A DNA stretch of 55,617 nucleotides from Promethearchaeota archaeon (lineage in GTDB: Archaea; Asgardarchaeota; Lokiarchaeia; Sigyniarchaeales; SOKP01), in assembly GCA_048938025.1 (NCBI GenBank), contig JBHLMP010000011.1, positions 25,277 to 80,893 of the forward strand, in the 5' to 3' direction. Both the position numbers and the translations under genes were made by a program. The notes beneath the pieces were generated by a model, which saw nothing but the letters and a program-made list of their open reading frames with translations, was not told the origin of the DNA and searched no databases. Positions 4,303 through 19,374 of the stretch are shown piece by piece; positions within the stretch are counted from its first letter, which is position 1; each line of letters begins with the position of its first letter.

Positions 4303-5391
4303 ATGAAAAAATCAATAAAACAATTAATTATCCTAGCTATTGTTGGAATTTGTATTTTTAATTTTGCATTGTTTTCTTTTATTAACATAAATTTTAAAAC
4401 AGAAAATGAAAATGGAAATTTGAAAATCTCTGCGCCCCCAATTTATATCGATGATACCGATCCAAGCTATAATTGGTCTATTGCTAAAGATGCGGGAATA
4501 TGTACGGGTGAAGGCACTTATTCTGAACCTTATCTGATAGAAGGCGTAGTAATAGATGGTACTGGATTAGATCTTAATTTAATAATGATAGAAAATTCTG
4601 ATGTATTCTTTAGGATTGAAAATTGTATTCTCCAAGATGTTGAGGGATTGAATTCGGCAATTAGATTATCTAATGTTGATAATGGACAATTAATAAATAA
4701 TAACTGTACCATAGGAGGTTTTATGTCTACTGGAATACGTTTAGACTATAGTAATAATATCACTATCTCGGGTACTATATGTAGACCACCGTCCCCCACC
4801 GACTACGGTGGCAACTATGGGATAGCTTTGAGAAATAGTATTAATAACACCGTTTCGGGAAACATTTTGGACTCAAACAATGGTGCTGGAATATATATAT
4901 ATAACTCTAATGATAACTTCATTTCGGGAAATACCATAACCGCCGCGTGGACTGCAGCGATAGATATAACTTATTATAGTATGTACAACACCCTTTCGGA
5001 TAACATCATAAGTGGTGGTGCTCATAATGGGATAAGGATGGGTAATAGTAATAATAACACAATTTTGAGAAATACCGTTAATGATTTTATCGAAGCAGGA
5101 ATATATGTACTTGATAGTCATTATTCCATAATCTCAGAAAACACCGCAAACAACAATGGACACGGGATTAAGTTAGAAAATAGTGATTACAACATCGTTA
5201 CGGGGAATAATTTGCGTGGAAATGATGTTTGTATTGAGGAGATCGATTGTGAAAATAATGTGCTTAGCGATAACACGTGTGGTGGTGAAGCAGAAGCTAT
5301 TCCTGGATACCTTCTATTTTGGGTACTTGGAGCGATCTTTGTAGGATCAGCAATTAATATACTTATTATAATAAAGAAAAAAAGGAAATAA
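4303..5391 (+). CDS. Secreted NosD/CASH parallel beta-helix surface protein with Loki-CTERM-like anchor
   Basis: Signal peptide; GEGTYSEPYLIE; repeated GIxLxxSxNNxIxGN units; C-terminal IPGY + TM + KKKRK. Confidence 0.88.
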   Translation: MKKSIKQLIILAIVGICIFNFALFSFININFKTENENGNLKISAPPIYIDDTDPSYNWSIAKDAGICTGEGTYSEPYLIEGVVIDGTGLDLNLIMIENSDVFFRIENCILQDVEGLNSAIRLSNVDNGQLINNNCTIGGFMSTGIRLDYSNNITISGTICRPPSPTDYGGNYGIALRNSINNTVSGNILDSNNGAGIYIYNSNDNFISGNTITAAWTAAIDITYYSMYNTLSDNIISGGAHNGIRMGNSNNNTILRNTVNDFIEAGIYVLDSHYSIISENTANNNGHGIKLENSDYNIVTGNNLRGNDVCIEEIDCENNVLSDNTCGGEAEAIPGYLLFWVLGAIFVGSAINILIIIKKKRK

Positions 5392-5564: not shown

Positions 5565-6506
5565 TTATATACTGAAACCATCATCAAAATCATCATATTC
5601 TACCTCAAGACGTTTCTTCTCCTCTTCTTTCTTCTCTTTCTTAATTTCTTTACGCTCCTTATATTTCATTTCATCGTATCTTTTAATATAAATTTCTTCA
5701 TATTTTTCTCTCAAGGATTCAACATCTTCAACGCCTCCTATTTTGTCCTCCAGTCCATCTTCAAAAAAATAGTTCTTCTTGAATTTGTTTGCCGGTATCC
5801 CTGCATATATCCACTCTCTTTCCAAAACTTGCCCAACAGTAGTAACTGAATTTGCTGCTAATATGCATTTTTGACCAATTTTGGTACCGGGCATAACTAT
5901 TGAATGGGAACCAATTCTTACATCATCTTCAATAATAGTCTTCCTGATTATTAAGAGGTTGCCAATAATAACCGCGGATTGAATAATTGCACCTTGACCA
6001 CAAACTACATTTTTGCCAAATTCTATAAATTCGGTGTCAACCCATCCCTCGAAAAGTGAATTTGAGATTTTTGTCTTTACTCCAAAAACCTTAAAGCAAA
6101 TATTATCTAGTGTTCCAGGGAAAGGAAATCTATGCGCAAGCCAGATGGGCCATCTCTTAATCGTATTTCGAAGACTCCAGTACCGATAATCTTTATCTTC
6201 AGGAGTTCTTAAAAATACCCCTTCCCTTGGGTGATGAATAGCATTAACTATAACCAACAAAATCTTTGCAAAAAATATTGCCGCAAAAACAATTGTGATA
6301 TACATTAAGATAGCTAAAAGGGGTAGAAATGTATAAAAATGTATGGGTCTTGTGTCATTCCATAGCAACCGCCAATAAACCCAAAATTCTAAGAGCAGTG
6401 GAATTATACTTGCCCATATTAGGAAAAAATAAAAAATTAAATATCTTTTTTTCACTAAAACAGTTGGAGTAAAAGGTCCCAATCTCATCGTGTTTGGTAC
6501 AGACAT
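5565..6506 (-). CDS. Membrane LbH (hexapeptide) acyltransferase-like protein, module M3 (locus A)
   Basis: Two TM helices, PREG motif, hexapeptide repeats (IEDDVRIGSHSIVMPGTKIG), WIYAGIPA. Start at MSVP (6506) by analogy with paralog 16701..17549. Confidence 0.8.
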   Translation of the reverse strand: MSVPNTMRLGPFTPTVLVKKRYLIFYFFLIWASIIPLLLEFWVYWRLLWNDTRPIHFYTFLPLLAILMYITIVFAAIFFAKILLVIVNAIHHPREGVFLRTPEDKDYRYWSLRNTIKRWPIWLAHRFPFPGTLDNICFKVFGVKTKISNSLFEGWVDTEFIEFGKNVVCGQGAIIQSAVIIGNLLIIRKTIIEDDVRIGSHSIVMPGTKIGQKCILAANSVTTVGQVLEREWIYAGIPANKFKKNYFFEDGLEDKIGGVEDVESLREKYEEIYIKRYDEMKYKERKEIKKEKKEEEKKRLEVEYDDFDDGFSI

Positions 6507-6510
6507 ATTT

Positions 6511-8388
6511 TTACATTTCCTCACTTTCTTTATTTTCTTGGTTAATTTTCTTAGCTTTAATCAATTCTCTTTTATCTTCGTCTATATTTACTTCATGTTC
6601 AATTTCAAATTTCCTTTCTTCATCGACATCTCTCTTCATAAGAATTTCCCTATGAGATAATGCATATTTATTTGGTTTGAATTTAGTAGCAGGAATTCCT
6701 GTATAAATCCACCCAGGCTCAAGAACTTGATTAACTGTCGTTGTACAAGCCCCACCCACCATTGTCTCTTTACCTATAATTGTACCTGGTACGATCGTGG
6801 TATGTGTACCAATCATTACGTAATCATCTAATATTACACTTCGAATTAATAGATATTTCCCAACAATCATCGAAGACATTATCACAGCAGCTTGACCGAC
6901 TAAATTCTTTCTCCCAAATTTAATAAATTCACCATCACACCAAGTATCAGCAAGATGGCTTGAAGTGTCCATATCAACACCAAATGATTTGAAAGCTATT
7001 ACATCCGTCCATGGAAAAGGCGAATTTCGTAAAAACCATAAAGATAATTTCCTTAGCTCAGTTCTTATCATCCAGAATTCAAAATCATTATCCCCTATCT
7101 CCGCTTTAAACACCCCTTCTCTGGGTTTGTGTAGTAAATTTATCAGTATTAGGAATAATTTACTAAATAGGAGGCAGGATAAAATGAAAAAATATATTGA
7201 GCCAAATAACGCTAAAGGTAAAAATGAAAGAATTGCAACCCAATTTTCATCGAGAAGATACCAATACCAAAAAATAGCAACCATAAAACCTGAAAGAAAA
7301 AAGATTGGAAGATAGAGTGCTAAAAATTTAATATTTATTCTGCTTATTGCTGAACTTGTAGTAAAATCGATAGCTAAATCTTCATCCGTTAATGTATGAA
7401 TATCAATTTGATTGTCAGTTAATTCAGTTATTAGTTGACCTTTATCGTTGTCAGATTTATTATTATTTCTTTCCTCAGCTTTTAATTTTTTCAACAGCTT
7501 TTTATCTCTATATCCTTCAATATTTTCATTTTTCTCTAAATCATTTGGAGATATGTTTAAATATTGCATTATCTTTCTCTTGAATATCCTTCTTAATGGT
7601 AACCCCCAGTAAAAATTGTTACCTTGTGTCACAGTATGTTTTACGCCTGAAGCCCATGGGAGTAAATAAGAGTCATCATGAATTTCTGAACCAGGACCAA
7701 ATAGATTCGATGTCGCCGCCGTAACATTATTTCCTACTTTAATTTTAAAATATGAGATATTCCCGAATATCCCTTCCACCACATGAGTCCCAAAAGCTGA
7801 ATCCACTCCGATATAGCAGTTATCGCCAATTTCGAGAAACTTATCATTAACTATAGATTCTTCTATTGTAGTACCCTTCCCCATTTTGCTTGCCCCTATA
7901 AAATTATAAAACCATTTACTAAGCCAGCTAAAAACCCCTTTCGCGAAAGCATTCTTTCCGTATTTAATCATGAAGGATCTTATATGATAATATTTTGCAG
8001 CTTCACTTCTGATATTTCGTGGAATAATTCCTTCTTTTGATGGCGAGATTTTTTCAGTTATTTTCCATAATATACGAGTAGCTAGAGCTAAAAAAAATAA
8101 ATGGAGTAAATAGCATCCAATAAGAACTAAAGGCATAGCTAATAGAGATAATAAAGGTTTAATCTCTATGAAGAGTGATAAAAAATTATTAGTTTCTAAA
8201 ACGTTTGGAAGAAAAAATTGTAGAGCATAATAAAAAAAGAGTAATCCGGCAAATACCCATGATGTATAAAAAATAATGGCAAATAAAGTTATATATACGT
8301 GATAATGCATTTTAACTTCTTCTTTTATGACTTCATCCTCTGAGTCACTCTCTCCAGCTTCTTCGCTCATTTTCTCTCCTTTATTCAC
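6511..8388 (-). CDS. Membrane double-LbH acyltransferase-like protein, modules M1+M2 (locus A)
   Basis: Two TM-hairpin + LbH units joined by a charged linker; GTHVVEG in M1; WIYTGIPA in M2. Confidence 0.82.
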   Translation of the reverse strand: MNKGEKMSEEAGESDSEDEVIKEEVKMHYHVYITLFAIIFYTSWVFAGLLFFYYALQFFLPNVLETNNFLSLFIEIKPLLSLLAMPLVLIGCYLLHLFFLALATRILWKITEKISPSKEGIIPRNIRSEAAKYYHIRSFMIKYGKNAFAKGVFSWLSKWFYNFIGASKMGKGTTIEESIVNDKFLEIGDNCYIGVDSAFGTHVVEGIFGNISYFKIKVGNNVTAATSNLFGPGSEIHDDSYLLPWASGVKHTVTQGNNFYWGLPLRRIFKRKIMQYLNISPNDLEKNENIEGYRDKKLLKKLKAEERNNNKSDNDKGQLITELTDNQIDIHTLTDEDLAIDFTTSSAISRINIKFLALYLPIFFLSGFMVAIFWYWYLLDENWVAILSFLPLALFGSIYFFILSCLLFSKLFLILINLLHKPREGVFKAEIGDNDFEFWMIRTELRKLSLWFLRNSPFPWTDVIAFKSFGVDMDTSSHLADTWCDGEFIKFGRKNLVGQAAVIMSSMIVGKYLLIRSVILDDYVMIGTHTTIVPGTIIGKETMVGGACTTTVNQVLEPGWIYTGIPATKFKPNKYALSHREILMKRDVDEERKFEIEHEVNIDEDKRELIKAKKINQENKESEEM

Positions 8389-8515
8389 AATATTATGTAT
8401 AAAAAATATCTTTAAATCTTATTCTATTAAAATGTAATTGTTCTTTTATATACTTTAAAAGATATGTTTTTTTTCTTTTAAAGTATTACCTATGGAATAA
8501 ACTATAAAATAGCCT

Positions 8516-8911
8516 ATGATAAATAAATGTGAAAATTGTGGTTTATGTTGTTATGAAACAGAAATGATTTTATCTTCTCAAGATATTGAATTAATTCTTA
8601 GCAATAATCCAAAAGGCATAATGAAAGAAGATTTTGTATTTAAAAATAAAGATGGATTTTATCAATTAAAAAATCGCAATGGTCATTGTGTTTTTTTAAA
8701 CGGGACTTCAAAAACCTGTAAAATCTATAACATTCGTCCTCAAGGTTGCAAATTCTACCCCCTAATTTATGATTTCTATAAAAAAAAATGTATAATTGAT
8801 GAGGAGTGCCCAAGAATCCATTTATTCTATCAAAACAAAAATAAGTTAAAAAGTATATGTGATAATTTAAAGAAATTTGCAAGAAATCAATTAAACATTA
8901 ATTTAAATTAA
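8516..8911 (+). CDS. YkgJ family cysteine-cluster protein
   Basis: CENCGLCC...CVFL...CKIYNIRPQGCKFYP. Confidence 0.9.
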   Translation: MINKCENCGLCCYETEMILSSQDIELILSNNPKGIMKEDFVFKNKDGFYQLKNRNGHCVFLNGTSKTCKIYNIRPQGCKFYPLIYDFYKKKCIIDEECPRIHLFYQNKNKLKSICDNLKKFARNQLNINLN

Positions 8912-8926
8912 AATAATTCAAGATTT

Positions 8927-10687
8927 TTAAACAAGATCTTTTTTATCCTCTTCGATGTTAACTTCATGTTCAATTTCAAATTTTTTATGATCATCTACAT
9001 CTTTTATAACAATGAGATCTCTACGAGATTCGGCATATTTATTAGGTTTTAATTTTCTCACTGGAATTCCAAAATATACCCAGCCCGGTTCTAAAATTTG
9101 ATTATATACAGTATTTGACATAGCACCAACGAAAGTTTCTTTTCCAACAATTGTACCTGGGGCGATTGTGGTCTGTCCGCCAATAAGAACGTAATCACCA
9201 AATATTACCTTTTTGATAATCAAATATTTGCCAACAACCATGGAGGACATAATAGTAGCTGCTTGTCCAACTAAATTTCTTCGTCCGAATTGAATAAATT
9301 CTCCATCACACCATGAATCATATAAACCACTCGAAAAATTCATCTTTACTCCAAACCATCTAAATGCTAATACATCTGCCCATGGAAATGGCCAATTTCG
9401 CATGAGCCATAAAACTATTTTCTTTAATTCTGTTCTTAACATCCAGAATTCAAAATCAGTCTCCCCAATTTCAGCCTTGAAGACGCCTTCCTTAGGCTTG
9501 TGAATAAGATTTATCAGAATCAAGAAAAGCTTGCTAAAAAAAGAACAACCAAGTATAAAAGTTAAATGCATTATTATTATCATCGCTGGCAAAAATAAAA
9601 GCATTAAATATAAGTCTGTAACAAAATAAGTGTACATATAGAATAGCATTAAGACTAAAAATCCACTGAACCAGAATATTGGGATATATACTGCTAAAAA
9701 TTTTATATTAACTCTACTGATCGCACTACTCGTTGTGAAATTAAGCGATAAATCTTTATTATCATCATCTTCGTTCTGGTTTTGCGACCCGAACGATGGA
9801 GTATCAGTTGAATCTTCAACGTCCTCTAATTGTTTTAAACTTTCGGGATCTATTTTTAAATAGTTCTTGATTCTTCGTTTAAATATTTTCCGGAGGGGTT
9901 GTGCCCCTTGGGAAAAATAATAACCATTTCCTTTTATCACACTGTGTTTTGTTGCTGAAGCTAAAGGAAGTAAATAAGAATTATTATGTATTTCCGATCC
10001 TGAAGCAATTAGGTTCATTGCTGCTGCTGTAACATTATCTCCTACTTCAATTTTAAAGTATGAGATATTACCGAAGATTCCATCGACCATATGGGCCGCT
10101 AAAGCTGCATTTACGCCGATATAGCAGTTTTCGCCAATCTCGAGAAACTTATCATTAACTGCAGATTCTTCCAATGTAGTTCCTTTTCCAATTTGGCTTG
10201 ATTTTACAAAATTATAAAGCCAAGGCACTAGCCATGGAAAAAATCCTTTTGTGAAAGTATTTTTGGGGTATTTCATGAGAAAGGATCTTATATGATAATA
10301 GTTTAATGTCTTACTTGGGAAATTTCGAGGTATTATTCCTGATTTTGAAGGAGATCTTTTCTCTGTTAATCCCCAGAACCAGCGAGCAATTAAAGCAATT
10401 AAAAATAAATGAATTAAGTAGCATCCGACAATGACCAATGGCATAGATATTAATGCTAAAAGAGGTTTTAAATTGATAAAAAGTGAAAAGAAATTCGTGA
10501 TTTCTAAAAAGTAAGGTACAAAATAAAACAATGCATATATCATGAAGATTATTACTGGAACCAAATAAGATATTAAATAAATAGTAAAAAAAATAACTAA
10601 ATACCAGAAATATTGAAACTGGACATCTTCTTTTATTATATTCTTGATTGAAAGACTGGGCCTTACTTTTTCTTTTATTTTAGTCAT
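8927..10687 (-). CDS. Membrane double-LbH acyltransferase-like protein, modules M1+M2 (locus B)
   Basis: Clear paralog of 6511..8388 (NDKFLEIG, AHMVDGIFGNISYFKI, FTTSSAISR, FEIEHEVNI). Confidence 0.82.
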   Translation of the reverse strand: MTKIKEKVRPSLSIKNIIKEDVQFQYFWYLVIFFTIYLISYLVPVIIFMIYALFYFVPYFLEITNFFSLFINLKPLLALISMPLVIVGCYLIHLFLIALIARWFWGLTEKRSPSKSGIIPRNFPSKTLNYYHIRSFLMKYPKNTFTKGFFPWLVPWLYNFVKSSQIGKGTTLEESAVNDKFLEIGENCYIGVNAALAAHMVDGIFGNISYFKIEVGDNVTAAAMNLIASGSEIHNNSYLLPLASATKHSVIKGNGYYFSQGAQPLRKIFKRRIKNYLKIDPESLKQLEDVEDSTDTPSFGSQNQNEDDDNKDLSLNFTTSSAISRVNIKFLAVYIPIFWFSGFLVLMLFYMYTYFVTDLYLMLLFLPAMIIIMHLTFILGCSFFSKLFLILINLIHKPKEGVFKAEIGETDFEFWMLRTELKKIVLWLMRNWPFPWADVLAFRWFGVKMNFSSGLYDSWCDGEFIQFGRRNLVGQAATIMSSMVVGKYLIIKKVIFGDYVLIGGQTTIAPGTIVGKETFVGAMSNTVYNQILEPGWVYFGIPVRKLKPNKYAESRRDLIVIKDVDDHKKFEIEHEVNIEEDKKDLV

Positions 10688-10835
10688 AGAATACGTCTTA
10701 TATTAACAATTTTCAGATATATTTACTAGTTAAGTATTTGTTTCTAAAAAACTCTGATAATAATTAATAATATTTGTTATATTAAGTTGAATCTTTAGTT
10801 TATTTATTATAAAAATAATCATTAAGGAGATTATT

Positions 10836-12485
10836 TTGAAGTCTTTTGATTTTGATTTTGAAGTTCAAGATCTCTTTACTAAAAAATTCTCTAATCTCAA
10901 ACCTCTTAACTGGAAAAGTTGGCTTGAAATAGGCACCAAAGAGGAATATGAAGAGCTTGCCCTGGAACTTTCTGGATTATCTTCTGTTGGAAATGTTTTA
11001 GAGAGAATTAAACATGAAGAGACAGATTCCAGAAGTTTTTCAATCGATCTAGATTCTTTCTTAGGTACTTTGCAGGATAAAGATCCTCCAATTTTTTGCC
11101 ATACATCTGGAACAACAGATAGTAAATTATCCAATTTAAAATGGTTTCATATGTCTAGAGATATTATTGAAAAGCAATGGGCCCCAGGAATGCAAGCTAT
11201 TTTTGAATCAAGTGGTTTGGATTCTAAGTCATCAGCAATTATTTTTATACCATCTAGATTAAAATTCGATGGAATTAGGATAAGTGATGATACTACCTAT
11301 ATTTCATTATATTCCTCAGAATTTTCACAAAGAATTATGCTATCTGTTATTAAACCTTATTCATATACAATCTACGAATATAAAAATTCAAGAAATTTAG
11401 AAATTATTTCTAATATTCTACAGATGGAAAATATTGCAGCTATTTCTGCTCCTGCAATAACAATTCTAGGTTGGTCGGATATAAATAGACTTCAAAATGG
11501 TCTAAAAAATTCACTCAATTCAATAAATATGGATAATAATCCAATCTTAGAGGGATTTTTAAGCAAAATTAAAAGGGAAGGCTTGAGTTTTGTATCAAGA
11601 GAAATTCAAGAAAAATTGTCAGAAAAATTATCTAAGGCTACATTGATTTTTAGTACTAGTTCCCTCTCTAAATTAGATTGGAATTTAATTCGTAAATTTA
11701 TGAAGTGGGAAATAGGTAAAGAAAAATTTATAAATCTCTATGTAGCATCTGAGATTGGGCCTTTTGCGGCAAGTATCAATAAAGGAGATTTTGAGATCTC
11801 ACGTTTAAATAGAATGTATGTTTTTCCTTTGACATTGCCTGTTATTGAGAGTAAAGGTAAGAAGGAATTAATTTCGAGAAGCAAAAATAAACTTGGTAAG
11901 CTTCTTGTATCTAGATTGAATAATTCAAGAGTTCTAATCAATATTGATATAGGAGATATTATCTCTGTTAAGAACCAAGAAGCAATTCCTCAAATTGATG
12001 GTAAAATTTTAAGATCACAATTTCAATTAAAATATCCTATTAAGATCTCAAATCAAATTAAAATTAACTCAAACTATACTATCTACGCCGGAGATTACTT
12101 TTCGTTAACTGATTTTGAAATAGTTGAACCGCGTGTTCTATTAAATCGTTTGAGAGAACATTGTAAATTTACAACTGATTCATTAATATTAATTAAATTT
12201 ATTGAAAACGATAAAATTAAGTGGAAACTAATTATACCTTCAAGCAACAATACAAATTGCTCAGATGAAGACAAAGTGAGAGAATTTATCTTAAAATACC
12301 CAAAATTTGAGGATATGAAACCAGCAATTAAAGACCAAAGTATCCACTTTCAGTCAATAAATGATAATCCTGTAGATTTTCTAGCTCACCGCGATGAGAT
12401 GTTAATGAAAGTAAGAAATGGCAAAATTCCAAAGGGAATTCTTAAAAAATGGCCTTTGTATGTTATTGAACCTGAACAACCCTAA
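10836..12485 (+). CDS. GH3-like / ANL-superfamily adenylate-forming enzyme
   Basis: Three spaced motifs CHTSGTT...K, LYVASEIG and IDIGD correspond to GH3 SSGTS..K / YASSE / YRxGD. Confidence 0.72.
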   Translation: MKSFDFDFEVQDLFTKKFSNLKPLNWKSWLEIGTKEEYEELALELSGLSSVGNVLERIKHEETDSRSFSIDLDSFLGTLQDKDPPIFCHTSGTTDSKLSNLKWFHMSRDIIEKQWAPGMQAIFESSGLDSKSSAIIFIPSRLKFDGIRISDDTTYISLYSSEFSQRIMLSVIKPYSYTIYEYKNSRNLEIISNILQMENIAAISAPAITILGWSDINRLQNGLKNSLNSINMDNNPILEGFLSKIKREGLSFVSREIQEKLSEKLSKATLIFSTSSLSKLDWNLIRKFMKWEIGKEKFINLYVASEIGPFAASINKGDFEISRLNRMYVFPLTLPVIESKGKKELISRSKNKLGKLLVSRLNNSRVLINIDIGDIISVKNQEAIPQIDGKILRSQFQLKYPIKISNQIKINSNYTIYAGDYFSLTDFEIVEPRVLLNRLREHCKFTTDSLILIKFIENDKIKWKLIIPSSNNTNCSDEDKVREFILKYPKFEDMKPAIKDQSIHFQSINDNPVDFLAHRDEMLMKVRNGKIPKGILKKWPLYVIEPEQP

Positions 12486-12520
12486 TTAATTAAAAAAGAA
12501 AAAAATTAGATATTATAATT

Positions 12521-12928
12521 TTATTTCCAAATTACTAAAATACTTCCCGCAATTAAAAATGCAATAAGATAAACGATATATTCTAAAAGAAATAGTTTCA
12601 TACCTCTATCGTTAAAATTCGACTGATTTATACCTATAGTTGCAACGAATCCAATCCAAAGCAATAAACTGAGTAATAAAGCGGGACCAATCTCTGATAT
12701 TCCTATTAAGATCATAACAACATCAATTACAAGTACTGTAATAAAACTTAATGGAATCATAATTATTGTTTCTTTTATAATTTTAGATTTGGGCTCACCT
12801 TCTTTACCAACTAATTTAAGCCAGAGATTTCCGAATGCAGAAGGAAAATACCAAAAAAAGTGTATGGCAAAATAAATCAGAGCAACAATACTAACTGCTA
12901 ACCAATTAACTTCAAAAGCCATTTCCAC
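12521..12928 (-). CDS. DUF1761-like 4-TM membrane protein
   Basis: VNWLAV...FFWYFPSAFGNLW...LWIGF pattern. Confidence 0.75.
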   Translation of the reverse strand: MEMAFEVNWLAVSIVALIYFAIHFFWYFPSAFGNLWLKLVGKEGEPKSKIIKETIIMIPLSFITVLVIDVVMILIGISEIGPALLLSLLLWIGFVATIGINQSNFNDRGMKLFLLEYIVYLIAFLIAGSILVIWK

Positions 12929-13039
12929 ACCAAAAAATAAATTATTATTTTGAATTTATAATTTTTAAGGATTATATAATTAAGCTGTATTTATTTCTTT
13001 TTTATTTAAAATATAAATAAAAATTAAAATGAAGTCAAA

Positions 13040-13519
13040 ATGAAAGATAAATTTAATTTATTAGGCACTAAAATCTATGAGTTTAGTTTACCAAATTCTA
13101 GAGGTGAAACGATCAACATTAGAGATTTCGAAAACAAAAAAAATGTAATAATTGTATTATTTAGAGATATCAATTGACCTTTTTGTCGATGGCATGCTGC
13201 TAGATTAAGAAGAGACATTGAAAAATTTGAACAATTGGATGGGTTTTTGTATCCAATTTTGGTTGATAATGAAAAAAATGCTAAGAAAATGGAACAAAAA
13301 TATGCTAAAAAATACGCTATTTTCTATGATGAATCAAAAAAAGTTGCTAGCCTGCTGAAACAAGAAAAAAGATGGATTAAACTTGGTCGTATGCCGGGAT
13401 TATTAGTAGTTGATAAGAAAGGAATCATTCAGTACGCATATTACGGAAAAAATATGCATGATATCCCTGAAAACAATGAAATTTTGCAAGTTCTTGAAGA
13501 AATAAATAAAAATCAATGA
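13040..13519 (+). CDS. Peroxiredoxin-like (AhpC/TSA) selenoprotein, UxxC motif, 159 aa
   Basis: ATG 13040 gives MKDKFNLLGTKIYEFSLPNSRGETINIRDF...VLFRDIN-TGA(13175-13177)-PFCRWH, continuing in frame into the tracked 13235..13519 ORF (LLVVDKKGIIQYAYYG). TGA occupies the first Cys position of the CPFC motif. Confidence 0.85.
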
Positions 13520-13586
13520 TTTGGTAAGAATAAAATAAAAAAAGTGAGATTTTATTCTTTAAAGTTAGCCACACTTTACCAAATCA
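13517..13586 (+). promoter_or_regulatory. 3' stem-loop after selenoprotein gene (SECIS candidate or terminator)
   Basis: TGATTTGGTAA (13517-13527) pairs perfectly with TTACCAAATCA (13576-13586); inner GAATAAAAT/ATTTTATTC (13528-13536/13549-13557). Canonical GA/GA quartet not seen. Confidence 0.35.
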
Positions 13587-13641
13587 AAAAATATATTATA
13601 TTATAAAGAGATATTTCTATAAAATTAAATTCTAATCTTCT

Positions 13642-14112
13642 TTAATAGGATTTAAGTCCAACTGGTTTTCCAACTAGTTCAAACTTATAAATAATTTGAT
13701 CTTCAATTTTGAAATTATCCCATCCTCCTTTTTTCATGAATCCATGAGCTGAAAGAAAATTGGTAGAAAAGTTCTTTCTTGCAATTTGTAGCATCTCATT
13801 CATAATTTCATTTTTTATTTCTTTTTCTTTAATGATTTTTAATACTCCCTGCATCGAAATAAAATAATAACTGCTTAAATCAGGTTTAAAATTTTCGATT
13901 GAAACACATACATTGGGATTTTTTGAGAGGATTTCTTTCTTTTTACCATAATCAGTAAAATGAAAGTATAGGGTATTATCTATAGAAACATATTGAAAGG
14001 GAGAGATATAAGGAAATTTATCATCAATGAAAGCAATTCTACATAAAGTATTAGAATTAATTGCTTCTCTTATTTCTTCTTCACTCATTTTTGGTAATTT
14101 AACTATCTTCAT
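13642..14112 (-). CDS. Pyridoxamine 5'-phosphate oxidase-like (NimA-type) flavin-binding protein
   Basis: CRIAF...PYISP...LYFH...GKKKEILSKNPNVC. Confidence 0.85.
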   Translation of the reverse strand: MKIVKLPKMSEEEIREAINSNTLCRIAFIDDKFPYISPFQYVSIDNTLYFHFTDYGKKKEILSKNPNVCVSIENFKPDLSSYYFISMQGVLKIIKEKEIKNEIMNEMLQIARKNFSTNFLSAHGFMKKGGWDNFKIEDQIIYKFELVGKPVGLKSY

Positions 14113-14202
14113 TTATCGATACACAGTTTCTAATTTTGTTTTAAGTAAAAAAAAAATTTTATTAAATTTATATTTGATTCCCTAAGTCTTAATGAGAAAT
14201 AA

Positions 14203-15099
14203 TCAATTTTTAAGAAATCTTTCATCATTAGTAATTATTTCTAATGCTTTCAACGCACTAATCTCTTTGTCTTTTATTTCCAGCATAAGATCGAAATTAA
14301 AGTTTTTTGTAAGTTTAATGAAATTTTTAAAATGCTTTAAATCTATGGTGTCAGCATGAGTTGGTTTACTTTTAATAGGATGTTCAGAGCTATAATGAAC
14401 AATTGGGATTCCATCCGTTTCTTTCCATGTATTTGAAATATTTTCAAAAGCTTCTTTTATTTGCTCTCCTGAATTGTTACATTGATGGTGATAAATATCA
14501 AAAATAATGGGGGTGCCTGTTTTCTCATTTATCTCTAAACAGTTATTAAGGCTATAACTCTTGTCATCATTTTCAATAACTAAACGATTTTTTATCTTAT
14601 TGTCAAGTTTAAAATATCTACTGATGAAGCGTTTCATACTCGCATTTTTATCTCCATAAACGCCTCCCACATGGATTTGAACTTTTGCTGTAGAATCGAG
14701 ATTCATCGAATCTAATACATCCACATGATAAATTAATTCTTTTAGACTATTTTCATAAACTTTCTTGGTGATAGAATTTAAAACTGTATATTGTCCGGGA
14801 TGCATAGTAATTCTCATTTTATTTTTCATGATAAAAGCGCCTAAATCTTCAAATGTAGTTTTAAAATGTTCCTTCCATTCAAAATCTAAAACAGGATGAG
14901 AAGCGAACGGAATTAAATCAGAAGTAATTCTAAAAAAGAGAATTTTATTGTTTCTATTAAATTCTAAAATCTTTTGTAAACAATTCAAATTCTCTTCAAT
15001 TATTTTCTTAAGTCTTTCTTTTGAATAATTTTTTAATCGAAATGTACGACTACTGCGACAGTCCAAAGTTAGATTAATGCAAGGATACCCAAGTTTCAT
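14203..15099 (-). CDS. uvsE: UV DNA damage repair endonuclease
   Basis: MKLGYPCIN, FFRITSDLIPFASHP, MHPGQY, IHVGG, IENDD, DIYHH, MLEIKDKE. Confidence 0.95.
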   Translation of the reverse strand: MKLGYPCINLTLDCRSSRTFRLKNYSKERLKKIIEENLNCLQKILEFNRNNKILFFRITSDLIPFASHPVLDFEWKEHFKTTFEDLGAFIMKNKMRITMHPGQYTVLNSITKKVYENSLKELIYHVDVLDSMNLDSTAKVQIHVGGVYGDKNASMKRFISRYFKLDNKIKNRLVIENDDKSYSLNNCLEINEKTGTPIIFDIYHHQCNNSGEQIKEAFENISNTWKETDGIPIVHYSSEHPIKSKPTHADTIDLKHFKNFIKLTKNFNFDLMLEIKDKEISALKALEIITNDERFLKN

Positions 15100-15315
15100 T
15101 TTATAATGGTATAAGATTCATTTATCTTAATTTTTAATTAATTTCTAAATTGCAGAGTAAAAAATTTAGTTATAATAAATTATAATTTGAATTCACCAAT
15201 AAAATTGAGAATTTAATAAAAAAAATATTATAATCGATAAACAAAACTATTTTAATGGTATCTTTATTTTTCGAGCTTAAGTTTGAATGAATTATTATTA
15301 ATTAAGGTATGAAAT

Positions 15316-15846
15316 TTGAGCAAACAAATTTATAAGTGGCATATAATTGGAATTGTTTTTATAATTCTAGTTGGCTCTTTCTTTCATTTTATTTTTGAAT
15401 TATCAGGGGAAAATTTAATTATCGCTGGAATAGCAGCTGTAAATGAAAGTGTCTGGGAGCATTTAAAGTTAGGATACTGGCCCTTAGTATTTTTTTCTCT
15501 AATTGAATATCGATTTATAAAAGATGATGCTAAAAATTTGGGGATAGCTAAATTAATGGGAGCTCTAACTATTATAGCTACAATTCTCGTAATATTTTAT
15601 TCCTATACGGCTATTATTGGGGAAGAAATTTTATTCATTGATATTCTAAGTTTTATCTTAGGAGTTATTTTTGGACAAATTGTAAGCTATAAATTAATGA
15701 GTAGCTCAAAATTACCACAATGGACTAATATACTTTCTTGGATACTTTTTGTAGGGTTAGGATTTCTTTTTATATTATTCACGTTTTACCCACCAAAATT
15801 ACCAATTTTCAAAGATGGTGTTACTGGTGGATATGGAATAGTATAA
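15316..15846 (+). CDS. DUF6512-like membrane protein
   Basis: GSFFHFIFE, VNESVWEHLKL, FTFYPP motifs; multi-TM. Confidence 0.7.
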   Translation: MSKQIYKWHIIGIVFIILVGSFFHFIFELSGENLIIAGIAAVNESVWEHLKLGYWPLVFFSLIEYRFIKDDAKNLGIAKLMGALTIIATILVIFYSYTAIIGEEILFIDILSFILGVIFGQIVSYKLMSSSKLPQWTNILSWILFVGLGFLFILFTFYPPKLPIFKDGVTGGYGIV

Positions 15847-15863
15847 ATTAAGAGTAATTCCAT

Positions 15864-16649
15864 TTACCTTAAGTAAAATTCCTTTCTTCTATCATTAATG
15901 ATATCATTGAATTTATTTAGTTTCTTATTTCTTGCTTTTTTTATATCTATTACCACCAAATTCATAGATACTCTATCTGGTGGGGCTGATGATAAGATTT
16001 TTCCATCATAGGAAGTAATCTGACTCTCTCCTGTGAATTTAAAGTTATCTTCGCCTCTAATCTCCTGTCCAATTCGGTTAGCTGTCACAGCATAAACTCG
16101 GTTTTCTAAACACCGTGTAATCATTGCTTTTTGGCAATAAGGAAGAACTAGATTTGCTGGATGAGCAATTATATCGGTCCCAAGAATAGCTAGAGTTCGT
16201 GTTGTTTCAGGAAATATCCAATCAAAGCAAATCATTATGCCGATGTTTACTCCATTAATTTCATATACTTTTAACGGTTTATCACCAGGATTAAACCATA
16301 ATTTTTCTTTATAATATAAGTGAAGTTTTCGATACACTCCTAACAATTCAGAATCAGAAACTATCATAGCAGAATTGAATATTTTATCTTTATCTTTTTC
16401 TATGAACCCTCCAACTATAATAGCCGAAGTCATTTTAGATAAATCCTTTAGAAAATGAGCAGTCTGTCCATCTGATCCTTCTGATAATGATTCAGCTTCC
16501 TTTTTTGAAATAAATGTATAACCTGTAGCAAATAATTCGGGTAAAACTAATAAGTCTGCTTTTACATTAGAGATGAGTTCCCTAACTTGTTCAAAATTTT
16601 TTTCTTTTTCTCCAAAAATAGGAGATGTTTGAATATATCCAACTTTCAT
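15864..16649 (-). CDS. Carbon-nitrogen hydrolase (nitrilase superfamily)
   Basis: E-K-C triad: LPELFATGY, YRKLHL, MICFDWIFPE. Confidence 0.93.
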   Translation of the reverse strand: MKVGYIQTSPIFGEKEKNFEQVRELISNVKADLLVLPELFATGYTFISKKEAESLSEGSDGQTAHFLKDLSKMTSAIIVGGFIEKDKDKIFNSAMIVSDSELLGVYRKLHLYYKEKLWFNPGDKPLKVYEINGVNIGIMICFDWIFPETTRTLAILGTDIIAHPANLVLPYCQKAMITRCLENRVYAVTANRIGQEIRGEDNFKFTGESQITSYDGKILSSAPPDRVSMNLVVIDIKKARNKKLNKFNDIINDRRKEFYLR

Positions 16650-16700
16650 CTTTAATCAAGATTTTTTATGATTAGTTAAAAATTAGGTGATAAGGTTATA

Positions 16701-17549
16701 TCATTTAATTTTTTTGTCTTTATCTTTCCTTACAGTATATAAATCTTCATACTGAGCAGTTGATTTTGCATATTCTTTAAACTGCCTTTCAATAATTTCT
16801 TCTAAACCATCTTCAAAGAATACATTCTTTTTGAATTTCTTTGCGGGGGCGCCTACATAAATATAATTCTCATCTAATACCTGACCTACAGTAGTCATTG
16901 AACTCCCTGCTAGAATAGAATTCTTTTTGATATAGGTTCCAGGCATTACCACGCTATGAGCACCGACCATTACATTATCTTCTAAAACGGTTTTTCTTAA
17001 TATAAATAAATTTCCGATAATAAGTGCTGATTGGATAAGAGCCGATTGGCCAATTGTCACGTTTTTACCAAAATCTATAAATTCTGTATCAATAAAACCC
17101 TCAAAAAGAGAATTTGAATATTTAGTTTTAATCCCAAATAATTTTAAACATATATTATCCATAAATGGGAAGGGAAATTTGTGAGATAACCATAATGGCC
17201 ATTTTTTTATAACACATCTTAAACACCAATATCGATAATCTTTATCAGAAGGATGTCTAAGAAAAACTCCTTCTCGAGGTTTATGAATTAGATTAGTAAT
17301 AACTAGAAAAATTTTCGCAAAAATTAGTGAAATCGCTATAGACGTTATATACATAACAAAAGTTAAAAGTGGTAAAAGAATTAAGAAGTGAATAAATCTA
17401 GGCTCGTAGAGCTTCCATAATAACCAAAATTCAAACTGAATTGAGAATATACTAATCCAAATAAGAAAGATATAAAAAATTAGGTATCTCTTTTTAACTA
17501 ATAGAAGTGTTGTATGTGGTCCACATTTTAAACTTGCAGGTACTGACAT
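16701..17549 (-). CDS. Membrane LbH acyltransferase-like protein, module M3 (locus C)
   Basis: Paralog of 5565..6506 (MSVP...LVKKRYLIFY, PREGVFLR, DKDYRYW, SNSLFEG, FFEDGLE). Confidence 0.82.
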   Translation of the reverse strand: MSVPASLKCGPHTTLLLVKKRYLIFYIFLIWISIFSIQFEFWLLWKLYEPRFIHFLILLPLLTFVMYITSIAISLIFAKIFLVITNLIHKPREGVFLRHPSDKDYRYWCLRCVIKKWPLWLSHKFPFPFMDNICLKLFGIKTKYSNSLFEGFIDTEFIDFGKNVTIGQSALIQSALIIGNLFILRKTVLEDNVMVGAHSVVMPGTYIKKNSILAGSSMTTVGQVLDENYIYVGAPAKKFKKNVFFEDGLEEIIERQFKEYAKSTAQYEDLYTVRKDKDKKIK

Positions 17550-17555
17550 GATATC

Positions 17556-18485
17556 TTATTTCTCCTTATTATTATTTAGAAATTCTTTTTTATCTTCATC
17601 AATATTTACTTCTTGTTTAACTTGATACTTAATTTCTTCATCTACATGCTTTTCATAAATTATTTCACGACTTTGTTCAGCATACTTGTTTGGTTTTAAT
17701 TTCCTGGCAAATTGACCCAAATAAATCCACCCCGCTTCTATCAATTGATTAGGAATAGTCGTGCTGAATGCACCAATTACAGACTCTTTACCCATTTTAG
17801 TACCAGGGGCTATATTTGAAACACCTCCAACAACCGTATGATCTCCAAGGATTACCGTTTTAATTATTAAATACTTTCCAACAATCATTGAACCCATTAT
17901 CACGCTTCCTTGTCCACAAGTCACGTTTCTACCAAATCTTATGAATCCTCCGCTTGCCCAAGCATCTTGCATATGGCTAGAAAAGTCGACATGAATACCC
18001 ACCCATCTGAAACCCCACATTACAATCCAAGGTAAAGGTCCATTATTCATAAACCAAAGAACTAGTTTTTTTAGTTCTAGACGTACTCTCCAGAATTCAT
18101 AATCCAAATCGCCCTCTTTAGCCCTGAAAATGCCTTCTTTAGGTTTATGAACCATATTTATTATTAGAAGGAAAGCTTTTGTGAAGATTGCAATACCAAA
18201 TACAAAAATAAAATATAAAATGAATAACCATATAGGGATTAAGAACATATTTATGTACCACGGGATATATCTTGAAATATCAAAAAATACAGCTACAGCC
18301 ATATATCCAGAAATCCACAGGATAGGGAGATATAAAGCGAGGAATTTATAACCTATTTTGCTTATAGCATTAGTAGTTACAAAATCAATAGTATAATCTG
18401 GCTTTTCACTATTTTCCTTATTTAAGTCAAATTTTTCTAGCGCGTCGCTCATTTTTACTTTCTTAATTAATTTTTTTTTTTTCAT
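17556..18485 (-). CDS. Membrane LbH module M2 (locus C); probably the 3' half of a frameshifted M1+M2 gene
   Basis: Matches the second half of the 625/586-aa paralogs (IDFVTTNAISK, PKEGIF, QEVNIDEDK). Overlaps upstream ORF across A12 at 18471-18482; alternative start MSD at 18452. Confidence 0.78.
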   Translation of the reverse strand: MKKKKLIKKVKMSDALEKFDLNKENSEKPDYTIDFVTTNAISKIGYKFLALYLPILWISGYMAVAVFFDISRYIPWYINMFLIPIWLFILYFIFVFGIAIFTKAFLLIINMVHKPKEGIFRAKEGDLDYEFWRVRLELKKLVLWFMNNGPLPWIVMWGFRWVGIHVDFSSHMQDAWASGGFIRFGRNVTCGQGSVIMGSMIVGKYLIIKTVILGDHTVVGGVSNIAPGTKMGKESVIGAFSTTIPNQLIEAGWIYLGQFARKLKPNKYAEQSREIIYEKHVDEEIKYQVKQEVNIDEDKKEFLNNNKEK

Positions 18486-19374
18486 TTTGCTTTAAATTTT
18501 TCATTAACTCTTCTGCTTTTTTTAGGTCATCTTCTGTAATCTGTAGGTATTCCATAAGCCTTTTCTTAAAGATCTTCCTTAGCGGCGCTCCAAAATAATA
18601 ATTATTTCCTTTCAAAACATTATATTTTGTTGCTCCTGTCATTGGTAACCACCATGAATTATCTCCAGTATCCACACCAGGACCAAAACAATTAAACCCA
18701 GCAGACGTAACATTATTCCCAATTTTTACTTTAGCAAATGAAATATTACCAAAAATACCATCTACAGCGTGAGAACTAATAGCTGGATTTGTGCCAATGT
18801 ATGAATTTTTTCCAACTTCTATAAATCGATCTCCAGCAAGTTGTTCCTCAATAACAGATCCTTTCCCTATTTTATTAGTACCTACAAAATTAAACATCCA
18901 TCTTAACAACCATGGAAAAGGACCTCGAGAAAAGGCATTTTTGGGATATTTGATAATAAAACTCCTGAAGTGGTATAAATCCAGAGTCTTACTGGGGATA
19001 TTTCGAGGAATAATTCCTGATTTGGAAGGAGACTTTTTTTCTGAGTAGTTCCAAAACCAACGAGTTATTAGAGCTACAATAAACAAATGTATTAAATAAC
19101 ATATTACGATAACAAATGGTATTGTTATGGAGGCTATAAGAGAAGGTAAATTAGTAAAAATTGACATAAAATTTTTTATTTCCAAGAAATAAGGTAAATA
19201 AAAAAGCATAATAAATATCATAAAAATTATACTTGGGATTAAAAAGGAGCAAAAATAGATAATATAAAATGCTGGTAACCATAAATGCAATTTTAAATTA
19301 ATTTCTTCTTTAATAATAGTATTTTCAGAAGGCTCTTTTTGGGCCAAACTTTTTGATTCCAACTTTTTTCCCAT
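18463..19374 (-). CDS. Membrane LbH module M1 (locus C); probably the 5' half of a frameshifted M1+M2 gene
   Basis: Matches the first half of the paralogs (SPSKSGIIPRN, SSHAVDGIFGNISF, PLRKIFK). Confidence 0.78.
   Translation of the reverse strand: MGKKLESKSLAQKEPSENTIIKEEINLKLHLWLPAFYIIYFCSFLIPSIIFMIFIMLFYLPYFLEIKNFMSIFTNLPSLIASITIPFVIVICYLIHLFIVALITRWFWNYSEKKSPSKSGIIPRNIPSKTLDLYHFRSFIIKYPKNAFSRGPFPWLLRWMFNFVGTNKIGKGSVIEEQLAGDRFIEVGKNSYIGTNPAISSHAVDGIFGNISFAKVKIGNNVTSAGFNCFGPGVDTGDNSWWLPMTGATKYNVLKGNNYYFGAPLRKIFKKRLMEYLQITEDDLKKAEELMKNLKQNEKKKIN

Follow-up and report, generated by a model that had tools for sequence, protein, structure and literature searches.

The subject of this report is a set of membrane-anchored hexapeptide-repeat proteins encoded in a 55,617-nt stretch of Promethearchaeota DNA (contig JBHLMP010000011.1), hereafter called the window, within which all coordinates are counted. 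Between positions 5565 and 19374, six open reading frames (ORFs), all on the minus strand, encode eight modules, each made of two hydrophobic helices followed by a hexapeptide-repeat region. This count and these positions agree with the original prediction, which had also likened the modules to the terminal region of the poly-amino-acid synthetases Pls and PosA. Locus A consists of A12 (6511-8388, 625 aa), a fusion of two modules with four membrane helices and two left-handed beta-helix (LbH) domains, and of the single-module subunit A3 (5565-6524, 319 aa as listed), which lies directly behind it. A3 probably starts at an ATG six codons into the listed ORF, whose first codon is GTG, since its orthologues begin with MSVPN. 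At locus B, the 586-aa fusion B12 (8927-10687) stands without a third-module gene of its own, as had been anticipated. Locus C encodes three separate subunits, C1 (18463-19374, 303 aa), C2 (17556-18485, 309 aa) and C3 (16701-17549, 282 aa); the C1 and C2 ORFs overlap by 23 nt, and C3 begins 6 nt past the end of C2. A fusion of the first two modules had been predicted for both A and C; it is found in A12, but C1 and C2 are distinct ORFs.

BLASTP comparisons sorted the eight modules into three subtypes, M1, M2 and M3, placed in the order M1>M2>M3, a classification that the original prediction had also reached. Identity is 46-56% among the M1 modules (A1, B1 and C1), 47-63% among the M2 modules (A2, B2 and C2), and 60% between the M3 modules A3 and C3. 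Across subtypes it is 31-42% for M2 against M3, and about 17-27% for M1 against M2 or M3. With one hidden Markov model (HMM) per subtype, the M1 HMM spans residues 16-325 of A12 (522 bits) and the M2 HMM residues 333-619 (493 bits); the corresponding scores in B12 are 529 and 540 bits. C1 scores 431 bits on the M1 HMM and C2 371 bits on the M2 HMM, while A3 and C3 score 573 and 480 bits on the M3 HMM.

In a hydropathy scan, two membrane helices head every module, and the only other hydrophobic segments are beta-helix turns. All modules are built alike, with a membrane hairpin of two helices, then a helical linker of ~70 residues opening with K-P-x-E-G, and last a short LbH. Past the second helix, the motif reads H-K-P-K/R-E-G in M2 and M3 and S-P-S-K-x-G in M1, and the beta-helix ends with an aromatic-x-G-x-P motif (WIYxGxPA; YYWGxPL). 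Both motifs, singled out earlier as KEG/REG/KSG and aromatic-x-G-x-P, are kept across relatives. The 27-bit gathering score of Pfam family PF00132 (Hexapep) is passed by A12 (31.2 bits), A3 (36.3), B12 (35.2) and C3 (30.3); C2 reaches 20.6 bits, under this cut-off, and C1 has no match. Judged from their sequences, all six proteins belong to the LbH superfamily PF00132, C1 and C2 being tied in through the M1 and M2 profiles. Lysines and arginines number 5-8 in the two flanks of the hairpin and 0-2 in the loop between its helices, in all eight modules. The beta-helices would face the cytoplasm, because the hairpin flanks are basic and the positive-inside rule applies; the adenylation (A), thiolation (T) and C parts of Pls must also lie on that side. 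The AlphaFold2 (AF2) model of A12 has, in each half, two long helices, two shorter helices, then strands, the strands being of low confidence. This pattern matches the published PosA model, which has two helices between each hairpin and beta-helix (PMC10522769).

The arrangement seen in the window recurs elsewhere. The genome holds 17 modules in total, those outside the window being on contigs C10 (three), C7 (three), C43 (two) and C82 (one), so that the predicted triplicated set is indeed present as three loci in the window but is not confined to it. On C10 and C7, an M3-M1 fusion is accompanied each time by a third module. A census of 26 loci, from this genome and seven relatives, showed three modules in 19 of them. 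Fifteen have the order M1>M2>M3, five with M1 and M2 fused and ten fully split; four show the cyclic permutation, M3-M1 plus a third module. Six others have two modules and one a single module. Because the three-gene layout is found in 10 of the 15 loci with canonical order, the split at locus C is natural, rather than a frameshift or an assembly artefact. Orthologues of B12, of ~585 aa and roughly 70% identity, are present in many Promethearchaeota metagenome-assembled genomes (MAGs); they form a conserved group, and none of the three B-type loci inspected has an adjacent M3 gene. A single 797-aa chain with all three modules, M3-M1-M2, was found in another Promethearchaeota MAG (P0121). Natural fusions thus come as M1-M2, M3-M1 and M3-M1-M2, and always join unlike subtypes. 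Such a pattern, read from gene structure, argues independently of any structural model for an assembly made of three modules.

That M1-M2 and M3 form one assembly had been proposed in the original prediction, and the complex predicted for A12 with A3 agrees with it, as do the fusions. Interface scores (ipSAE) were 0.81, 0.82 and 0.77, to be compared with 0.00 for the best of three controls; contacts agreed between runs to at least 70%, and the pLDDT (per-residue model confidence) of the partner was at least 74. Of 80 solved complexes, 58 reached the mark set for such a pass, as did 2 of 110 mismatched pairs; these counts hold only roughly where, as here, custom alignments are supplied. In the model, A3 touches both the M1 part (residues 63-296) and the M2 part (333-565) of A12. 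Membrane contacts join residues 85-90 of A12 to 33-44 of A3, with a helix-helix contact of 86 with 37. Between the beta-helices, residues 192, 223 and 241-244 of A12 meet residues 180-188, 209 and 227 of A3, 223 lying against 186-188. Several of the residues concerned are conserved: L242-L243-P244 of A12 and G205 of A3 are invariant, and H207 of A3 is kept in at least 90% of the sequences. A12 and A3 are accordingly modelled, and only predicted, to form one pseudo-threefold complex.

The relation to Pls and PosA was examined with a profile made from 34 M2, M3 and paralogue modules, which was run on 1.84 billion protein representatives. The search gave 11210 matches at E<=1e-3 and 123 at E<=1e-30. 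Eight proteins of 1320-2000 aa are among its 150 best matches, each of them matched in three stretches, and the Pls/PosA synthetases in this top group have E values from 7e-37 to 2e-28. Five of six long proteins checked passed the cut-off of the Pls/PosA terminal-domain family TIGR02353 (471-605 bits, cut-off 423.1) and that of the A-domain family TIGR01733; the sixth, P0232, stayed under both, with 252 bits on TIGR02353. P0232 (1696 aa) shows the reverse domain order, with its three-module region (323-1021) before its adenylation domain (1116-1551). Another three-module protein, P0191 (960 aa), carries an N-terminal extension of ~280 residues, and its source name, 'short-subunit dehydrogenase/acetyltransferase-like', suggests a dehydrogenase fused to a Pls-like body.

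The match to Pls is not limited to the hexapeptide repeats. Among the 27 modules of nine Pls-family proteins, 19 aligned from profile position 8-82 to ~228-269 of 289; the others matched from position ~114-142, that is over the linker tail and the beta-helix. When hairpin and linker were added to a profile of the LbH alone, each Pls module scored 8-21 bits higher. When the Asgard modules were compared with the 27 Pls modules by hhalign, 208 collinear columns covering hairpin, linker and LbH were aligned (Prob 99.8%, E 4.7e-28), and the K-P-x-E-G motif fell on the k-k-p-G motif of Pls. Without the LbH, the rest of the module still gave Prob 87% and E 4.1e-6 over 144 columns; reversed controls reached 0.2-0.5% (E 0.31 for the control at 0.2%). 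The likeness to the Pls/PosA terminal region that had been proposed is therefore recovered both by the three matched stretches and by the helices and linker. On these alignments, the modules are homologous to those of Pls/PosA over their whole length, though distantly, at ~20% identity.

They are not members of the Pls/PosA family, since they fall below its cut-off, do not form one chain and lack A and T domains. On TIGR02353, A12 scores 45.1 bits, A3 36.5, B12 38.0, C1 13.7, C2 26.6 and C3 31.3, against the cut-off of 423.1; the A3 match (residues 80-252 on profile positions 55-217) takes in part of the hairpin. The whole genome has 14 matches to this family, none above the cut-off. The absence of a fused A-T didomain, which had been expected, was borne out, as neither an A nor a T domain was found in the six proteins. 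Longer relatives, of the kind that would carry a fused A-T part, were sought with B12 (none at E<=0.001 among 6671 candidates) and with a 46-row M1-M2 alignment (none at E<=10 among 4246 candidates), both being weak evidence. In the Protein Data Bank (PDB), searches with a Pls-family protein and with the module profile gave, among the 60 best matches listed for each, A-domain and generic LbH chains only, none of them covering the Pls membrane domain; a phmmer search with B12 found soluble LbH chains only.

Between the Asgard modules and Pls/PosA stands a family of free-standing three-module bacterial proteins, those of 650-685 aa among them, with 148-203 bits on the Asgard profile and 157-184 bits on TIGR02353 in two to three stretches. 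By these scores, this intermediate family bridges the two. Similarity within the Asgard lineage or within the Pls lineage is higher than across them, which suggests either that the Asgard and Pls triplications were separate events starting from a single-module ancestor, or that the copies were homogenised.

The B12 search retrieved 463 relatives at E<=1e-5 among 8000 scored candidates. Among the 120 listed, every name given by the source is that of an Asgard MAG, and the annotations read 'hypothetical protein', 'acyltransferase' or 'acetyltransferase-like isoleucine patch superfamily enzyme'. The M1-M2 alignment, searched against species-representative genomes, found 76 distinct loci, mostly in Promethearchaeota/Promethearchaeia MAGs, with some other Asgard labels and about a dozen labelled 'uncultured archaeon'. 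We then used a sample of 151 genomes of the phylum, which are kin, so that the counts are not independent events. Strong M3 matches are present in 25/25 genomes of the family to which the window belongs and in 2/2 of its sister family. M1, at E<=1e-25, is found in 24/25 and 2/2 of these, and in 0/124 genomes of other families; the two families together count 27 genomes, and 26 of these have both M1 and M3. The module family is thus multi-copy, and confined to one order of Promethearchaeota among the genomes searched. A tblastn search of plasmids with B12 gave seven records, all of them generic LbH matches over 14-16% of the query. For the sequence itself, 20 sequencing runs were listed, DNA metagenomes of sediment, seawater, mangrove and marsh, and none was RNA.

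Relatives with one module only are common among Proteobacteria, Myxococcota, Bdellovibrionota, Planctomycetota and marine Thermoplasmatota. Among loci found with an alignment of the bacterial three-module proteins, the matching ORF holds one module in 79 of 80 cases and three in one. At one such locus, seen once, in a Proteobacteria MAG (L176, 4851-8710), a 218-aa single-module relative follows a ThiF-family adenylyltransferase and an Acg/Rv1355c-like flavin mononucleotide (FMN) oxidoreductase; after it comes an EDSAP-1 PEP-CTERM protein, and the XrtA-system protein PrsT is close by.

Divergent from B12, across a 148-nt spacer, lies a plus-strand gene (10836-12485) for a 549-aa adenylate-forming enzyme of the PaaK/GH3 fold. 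The protein has no Pfam or NCBIfam match at E<=0.1 (PF00501 and PF03321 included) and no PDB sequence match at E<=10. Its AF2 model (pLDDT 89.5) gave 210 Foldseek matches at E<=1e-3, led by BT_0428, PaaK1 and GH3 enzymes, the top ones at E 2e-12 to 1e-8 with probability 1.00, and an S91-G92-T93 P-loop is invariant in 17 orthologues. The model places it, at the level of fold, in the PaaK/GH3 clade of the ANL superfamily. The GH3-like character that had been proposed for this neighbour is therefore retained, but its linkage to the module genes is loose. The gene was found in 16/25 genomes of the family, in 0/2 of the sister family and in 3/6 genomes of family f19, which lack M1. In the 17 family genomes counted as having it, it lies within ~3 kb of a module gene in 11, all from two related genera, and on another contig in five; in one this could not be determined. 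In the 22 fetched loci, its commonest immediate neighbours are DUF6512 (10 loci, and a truncated copy in an eleventh) and DUF1761 (5), and an LbH module lies within the 1.5-kb flank in 1/22. Its role as an obligate partner is weakened by this patchy distribution and by the steadier company of DUF6512 and DUF1761.

In relatives, the DUF6512 membrane protein is encoded directly upstream of the PaaK/GH3-fold gene (10/22) and DUF1761 downstream (5/22), so that the three genes may form a unit of their own. The window genes concerned are at 10836-12485, 12521-12928 and 15316-15846; DUF6512 is here ~2.8 kb from the PaaK/GH3-fold gene. A carbon-nitrogen hydrolase gene (15864-16649, minus strand, 132 bits on PF00795) follows C3 on the same strand after 51 nt, and homologues take the place after the C-type M3 gene in L026, L031 and L075, though L077 has none there; the hydrolase gene is possibly part of the C operon. 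Divergent from A12, a plus-strand gene (8516-8911) encodes a CxxCxxCC protein (PF03692, 52 bits), and a homologue stands beside the A-type M1-M2 gene in all four A-type loci (the window, L075, L077 and L078).

A second pairing of a membrane LbH protein with an adenylating enzyme was seen in this genome, on contig C11 (35044-37416, locus L086 2045-4417). There, a distant membrane-anchored LbH protein of 371 aa, with its hexapeptide part C-terminal, is followed 73 nt downstream by a LuxE-family acyl-protein synthetase and preceded by a family-2 glycosyltransferase. Three other window genes may be mentioned. A 94-aa ORF (13235-13519, plus strand) matches the C-terminal part of AhpC/TSA and Redoxin (positions 64-123 of 124) and looks like a truncated peroxiredoxin gene. 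Convergent with A3, at 4303-5391 on the plus strand, lies the gene of a 362-aa NosD-like right-handed beta-helix protein, hydrophobic at both ends and probably a surface protein; a genome of the same genus (L010) does not have it at this position. Finally, a minus-strand gene (2202-4100) encodes a 632-aa protein with two N-terminal winged-helix units (MarR/HTH_34-like) and tetratricopeptide repeats in its C-terminal half.

Taken together, we consider that these proteins are probably heteromeric membrane LbH acyltransferases built of three unlike modules, distant kin of Pls/PosA, and that they most likely use coenzyme A (CoA) thioesters. One M1, one M2 and one M3 would together form a head of pseudo-threefold symmetry, set on a membrane base of six helices, an architecture which would be that modelled for the C-terminal polymerisation domain of Pls/PosA. 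Locus A would supply M1-M2 and M3, and locus C the three modules as three proteins; locus B, with M1-M2 only, would have to borrow a third module or to assemble differently. An acyl or aminoacyl group would be taken from a pantetheine thioester at the interface between beta-helices, and passed to an acceptor in the membrane base, or threaded through it. Candidate acceptors are lipids, glycans and exported chains that are still growing.

As to the donor, LbH transferases take acyl groups from pantetheine thioesters, and Pls takes residues from its own T domain. The 96.7%-complete genome gave no match to the carrier family PF00550, nor to the phosphopantetheinyl transferase (PPTase) family PF01648, an absence that rests on two Pfam models and a draft genome; the two families were found in 11/14 and 10/14 control genomes, respectively. 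Because neither was found, an acyl-CoA or aminoacyl-CoA donor appears likelier than a carrier-bound residue. The genome has 17 genes for AMP-binding ligases, and paralogous loci adjoin genes of CoA metabolism, namely an acyl-CoA dehydrogenase on C10 and a CoA-binding subunit of an ADP-forming ligase on C82.

Several observations weigh against this reading, the narrow basis of the carrier and PPTase search being one of them. The census loci of the relatives were picked through M3 matches, and are therefore biased towards loci with M3; even so, seven of the 26 hold one or two modules, locus B included. A12 folded alone gave a poor model (pLDDT 52.4, the LbH parts below 50). The positive result for A12 with A3 may reflect likeness rather than binding, because LbH trimers are abundant among solved structures. 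Concerning the kinship to Pls, a plain HMM of hairpin and linker, used with filters off, did not detect Pls (at most 6 bits, as for unrelated ORFs of the genome), and weak TIGR02353 matches are unspecific, being present in 14/14 control genomes. Pls modules score 21-68 bits each on the module profile, and the best soluble LbH protein of the PDB, a galactoside acetyltransferase, 51.6 bits; Pls and soluble LbH proteins differ by the coverage of the match, not by its score. A one-to-one correspondence of M1, M2 and M3 with C1, C2 and C3 of Pls was sought and not found. Finally, we know of no catalytic residue for a Pls-type domain.

Other explanations may be considered. The proteins could form a carrier-free, Pls-like polymerase, in which an amide-linked chain is extruded via the six-helix base and the monomer is activated in trans, for instance by the PaaK/GH3-fold neighbour, as an adenylate or a CoA thioester. 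This seems unlikely to us, although it has points in its favour. The characterised relatives found with the hairpin-linker-LbH design are amino-acid polymerases (PMC10522769). The adenylating enzyme of the PaaK/GH3 fold is 148 nt from B12, no more than ~3 kb separates it from a module gene in 11 of the 17 genomes of the family where it occurs, and on contig C11 a membrane LbH gene is directly followed by one for a LuxE-family adenylating enzyme. Moreover, the three-module bacterial gene of L163 adjoins an ORF that weakly matches an A-T profile built for this analysis (41 bits), and the carbon-nitrogen hydrolase after C3 could trim an amide polymer. On the other hand, none of the Asgard relatives found has a fused A or T domain, and the genome yielded neither a carrier protein nor a PPTase. 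Searches did not find the PaaK/GH3-like gene in 9/25 genomes of the family, nor in either of the two sister-family genomes, which have the modules, while it occurs in 3/6 f19 genomes without M1; its steadiest neighbours are the DUF6512 and DUF1761 membrane proteins, not LbH genes. Its synteny with the modules is limited to two closely related genera, and may be simple inheritance. Lastly, the modules are no nearer to Pls than to each other.

A less probable explanation is that M1, M2 and M3 are ordinary paralogues with different substrates, clustered by tandem duplication only, and that each forms its own homotrimer, the fused forms giving mixed oligomers. Soluble LbH enzymes are indeed homotrimers, single-module relatives are common in bacteria and other archaea (one module per ORF at 79/80 loci), and this genome has a lone module on C82, a pair on C43, and no M3 gene at locus B. 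Yet mere clustering accounts poorly for an order M1>M2>M3 that is fixed or cyclically permuted in 19/26 loci, for fusions that join unlike subtypes and never two alike, for a fully fused M3-M1-M2 chain, and for genes that overlap by 23 nt or abut with gaps of about 4-6 nt. M1 is only ~17-27% identical to M2 and M3, yet it is retained alongside them in 26/27 genomes, and the modelled heteromer scores 0.81 against 0.00 for its controls. Very improbable, in our view, is that the beta-helices are not acyltransferases at all, being gamma-carbonic-anhydrase-like or purely structural scaffolds attached to the membrane. This is suggested by weak matches to gamma-carbonic anhydrases (NF050158, 17-29 bits; PDB entries 3r1w, 3tio and 9qez), but those scores are far under the 250-bit cut-off, the matches cover the last helix turns only, and the G-x-P-A-K/R ending, which typifies hexapeptide transferases dependent on CoA, is kept in these modules and in Pls alike.

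The reading of the modules as heteromeric acyltransferases can now be set beside known systems. Soluble hexapeptide acyltransferases (galactoside and maltose acetyltransferases, LpxA/LpxD, DapH, streptogramin acetyltransferases) share with them the LbH signature and the G-x-P-A ending; trimeric packing with conserved interface residues would also be shared, according to the A12-A3 model, a prediction that may lean on solved LbH trimers. The soluble enzymes differ in having neither membrane hairpin nor linker and in being homotrimers, and their matches cover the last 60-100 profile positions. For the 549-aa neighbour, the comparison is with the PaaK/GH3 clade (PaaK1, BT_0428, GH3.15/JAR1), with which it shares the two-domain fold, matched at E 2e-12 to 7e-11, and the S-G-T P-loop. 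Identity to its structural matches is 9-13%, and the TM-scores (a measure of structural similarity) of 0.36-0.51 are those expected of a hinged enzyme, but are weaker evidence.

The free-standing three-module bacterial group comprises the clusters of P0176, P0177, P0201, P0205 and P0230, of 650-800 aa, together with L163, from a Propionivibrio MAG. Its named members are hypothetical proteins of Elusimicrobiota MAGs, and the source names in the group are 'hypothetical protein' or 'acetyltransferase-like isoleucine patch superfamily enzyme'. Like the Asgard sets, these proteins are Pls-like bodies without A-T domains, and their linker is detectable by a non-LbH profile (P0176, 21 bits). Unlike them, they are bacterial, consist of a single fused chain, are nearer to TIGR02353, and have no subtype as divergent as M1.

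A literature search found no description of stand-alone, split, archaeal or Asgard homologues of the TIGR02353 type, nor of a solved Pls membrane domain. According to the PosA paper, of 2023, there is no experimental structure of the Pls/PosA terminal domain; its survey, confined to full-length homologues with a length of 1100-1800 aa, mentions 'a few species' of archaea (PMC10522769). The joining of a chain and its export by the terminal domain form an unsolved problem of Pls biology. Asgard archaea, for their part, have very few cultured members, and what is added here is an expanded, lineage-restricted membrane enzyme family that may bear on their envelope or lipid chemistry. More specifically, an order of Asgard archaea could make and export an amide- or ester-linked polymer, or a heavily acylated component of the envelope, by means of carrier-free heterotrimers fed by stand-alone adenylating or CoA-ligating enzymes. 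We hold this to be doubtful. If it were true, each of the paralogous M1/M2/M3 sets, of which a genome has five or more, would differ from the others in product or chain length, and the closest prokaryotic relatives of eukaryotes would possess a modular route to membrane-extruded polymers, independent of non-ribosomal peptide synthetases (NRPS).

The closest comparison remains that with Pls/PosA. Their terminal domain (TIGR02353) has, as here, three modules of hairpin, helical linker and short LbH on the cytoplasmic side, a basic-x-G motif that comes just behind the second helix, and W/Y-x-G-x-P-A at the end. Models predict a pseudo-threefold assembly for PosA (PMC10522769) as well as for A12 with A3. 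Among the differences, each locus of the window divides its modules among two or three proteins, the six proteins have neither A nor T domain, and many paralogous sets coexist per genome. Pls, by comparison, is described as a single synthetase gene. The wider family, of one architecture, ranges from single-module proteins of many bacteria and of marine archaea, through bacterial three-module proteins that stand alone and the split sets of Asgard archaea, to Pls with its NRPS fusion; multi-module forms are thus found in several separate groups. Within it, we propose that the Asgard proteins are a free-standing, split relative of the chain-building domain of Pls/PosA. They would offer a natural dissection of this type of domain into small subunits free of the A-T machinery, in which the three positions can diverge strongly (M1 against M2 and M3) while their cyclic order matters, and such split subunits should be simpler targets for structural work and reconstitution.

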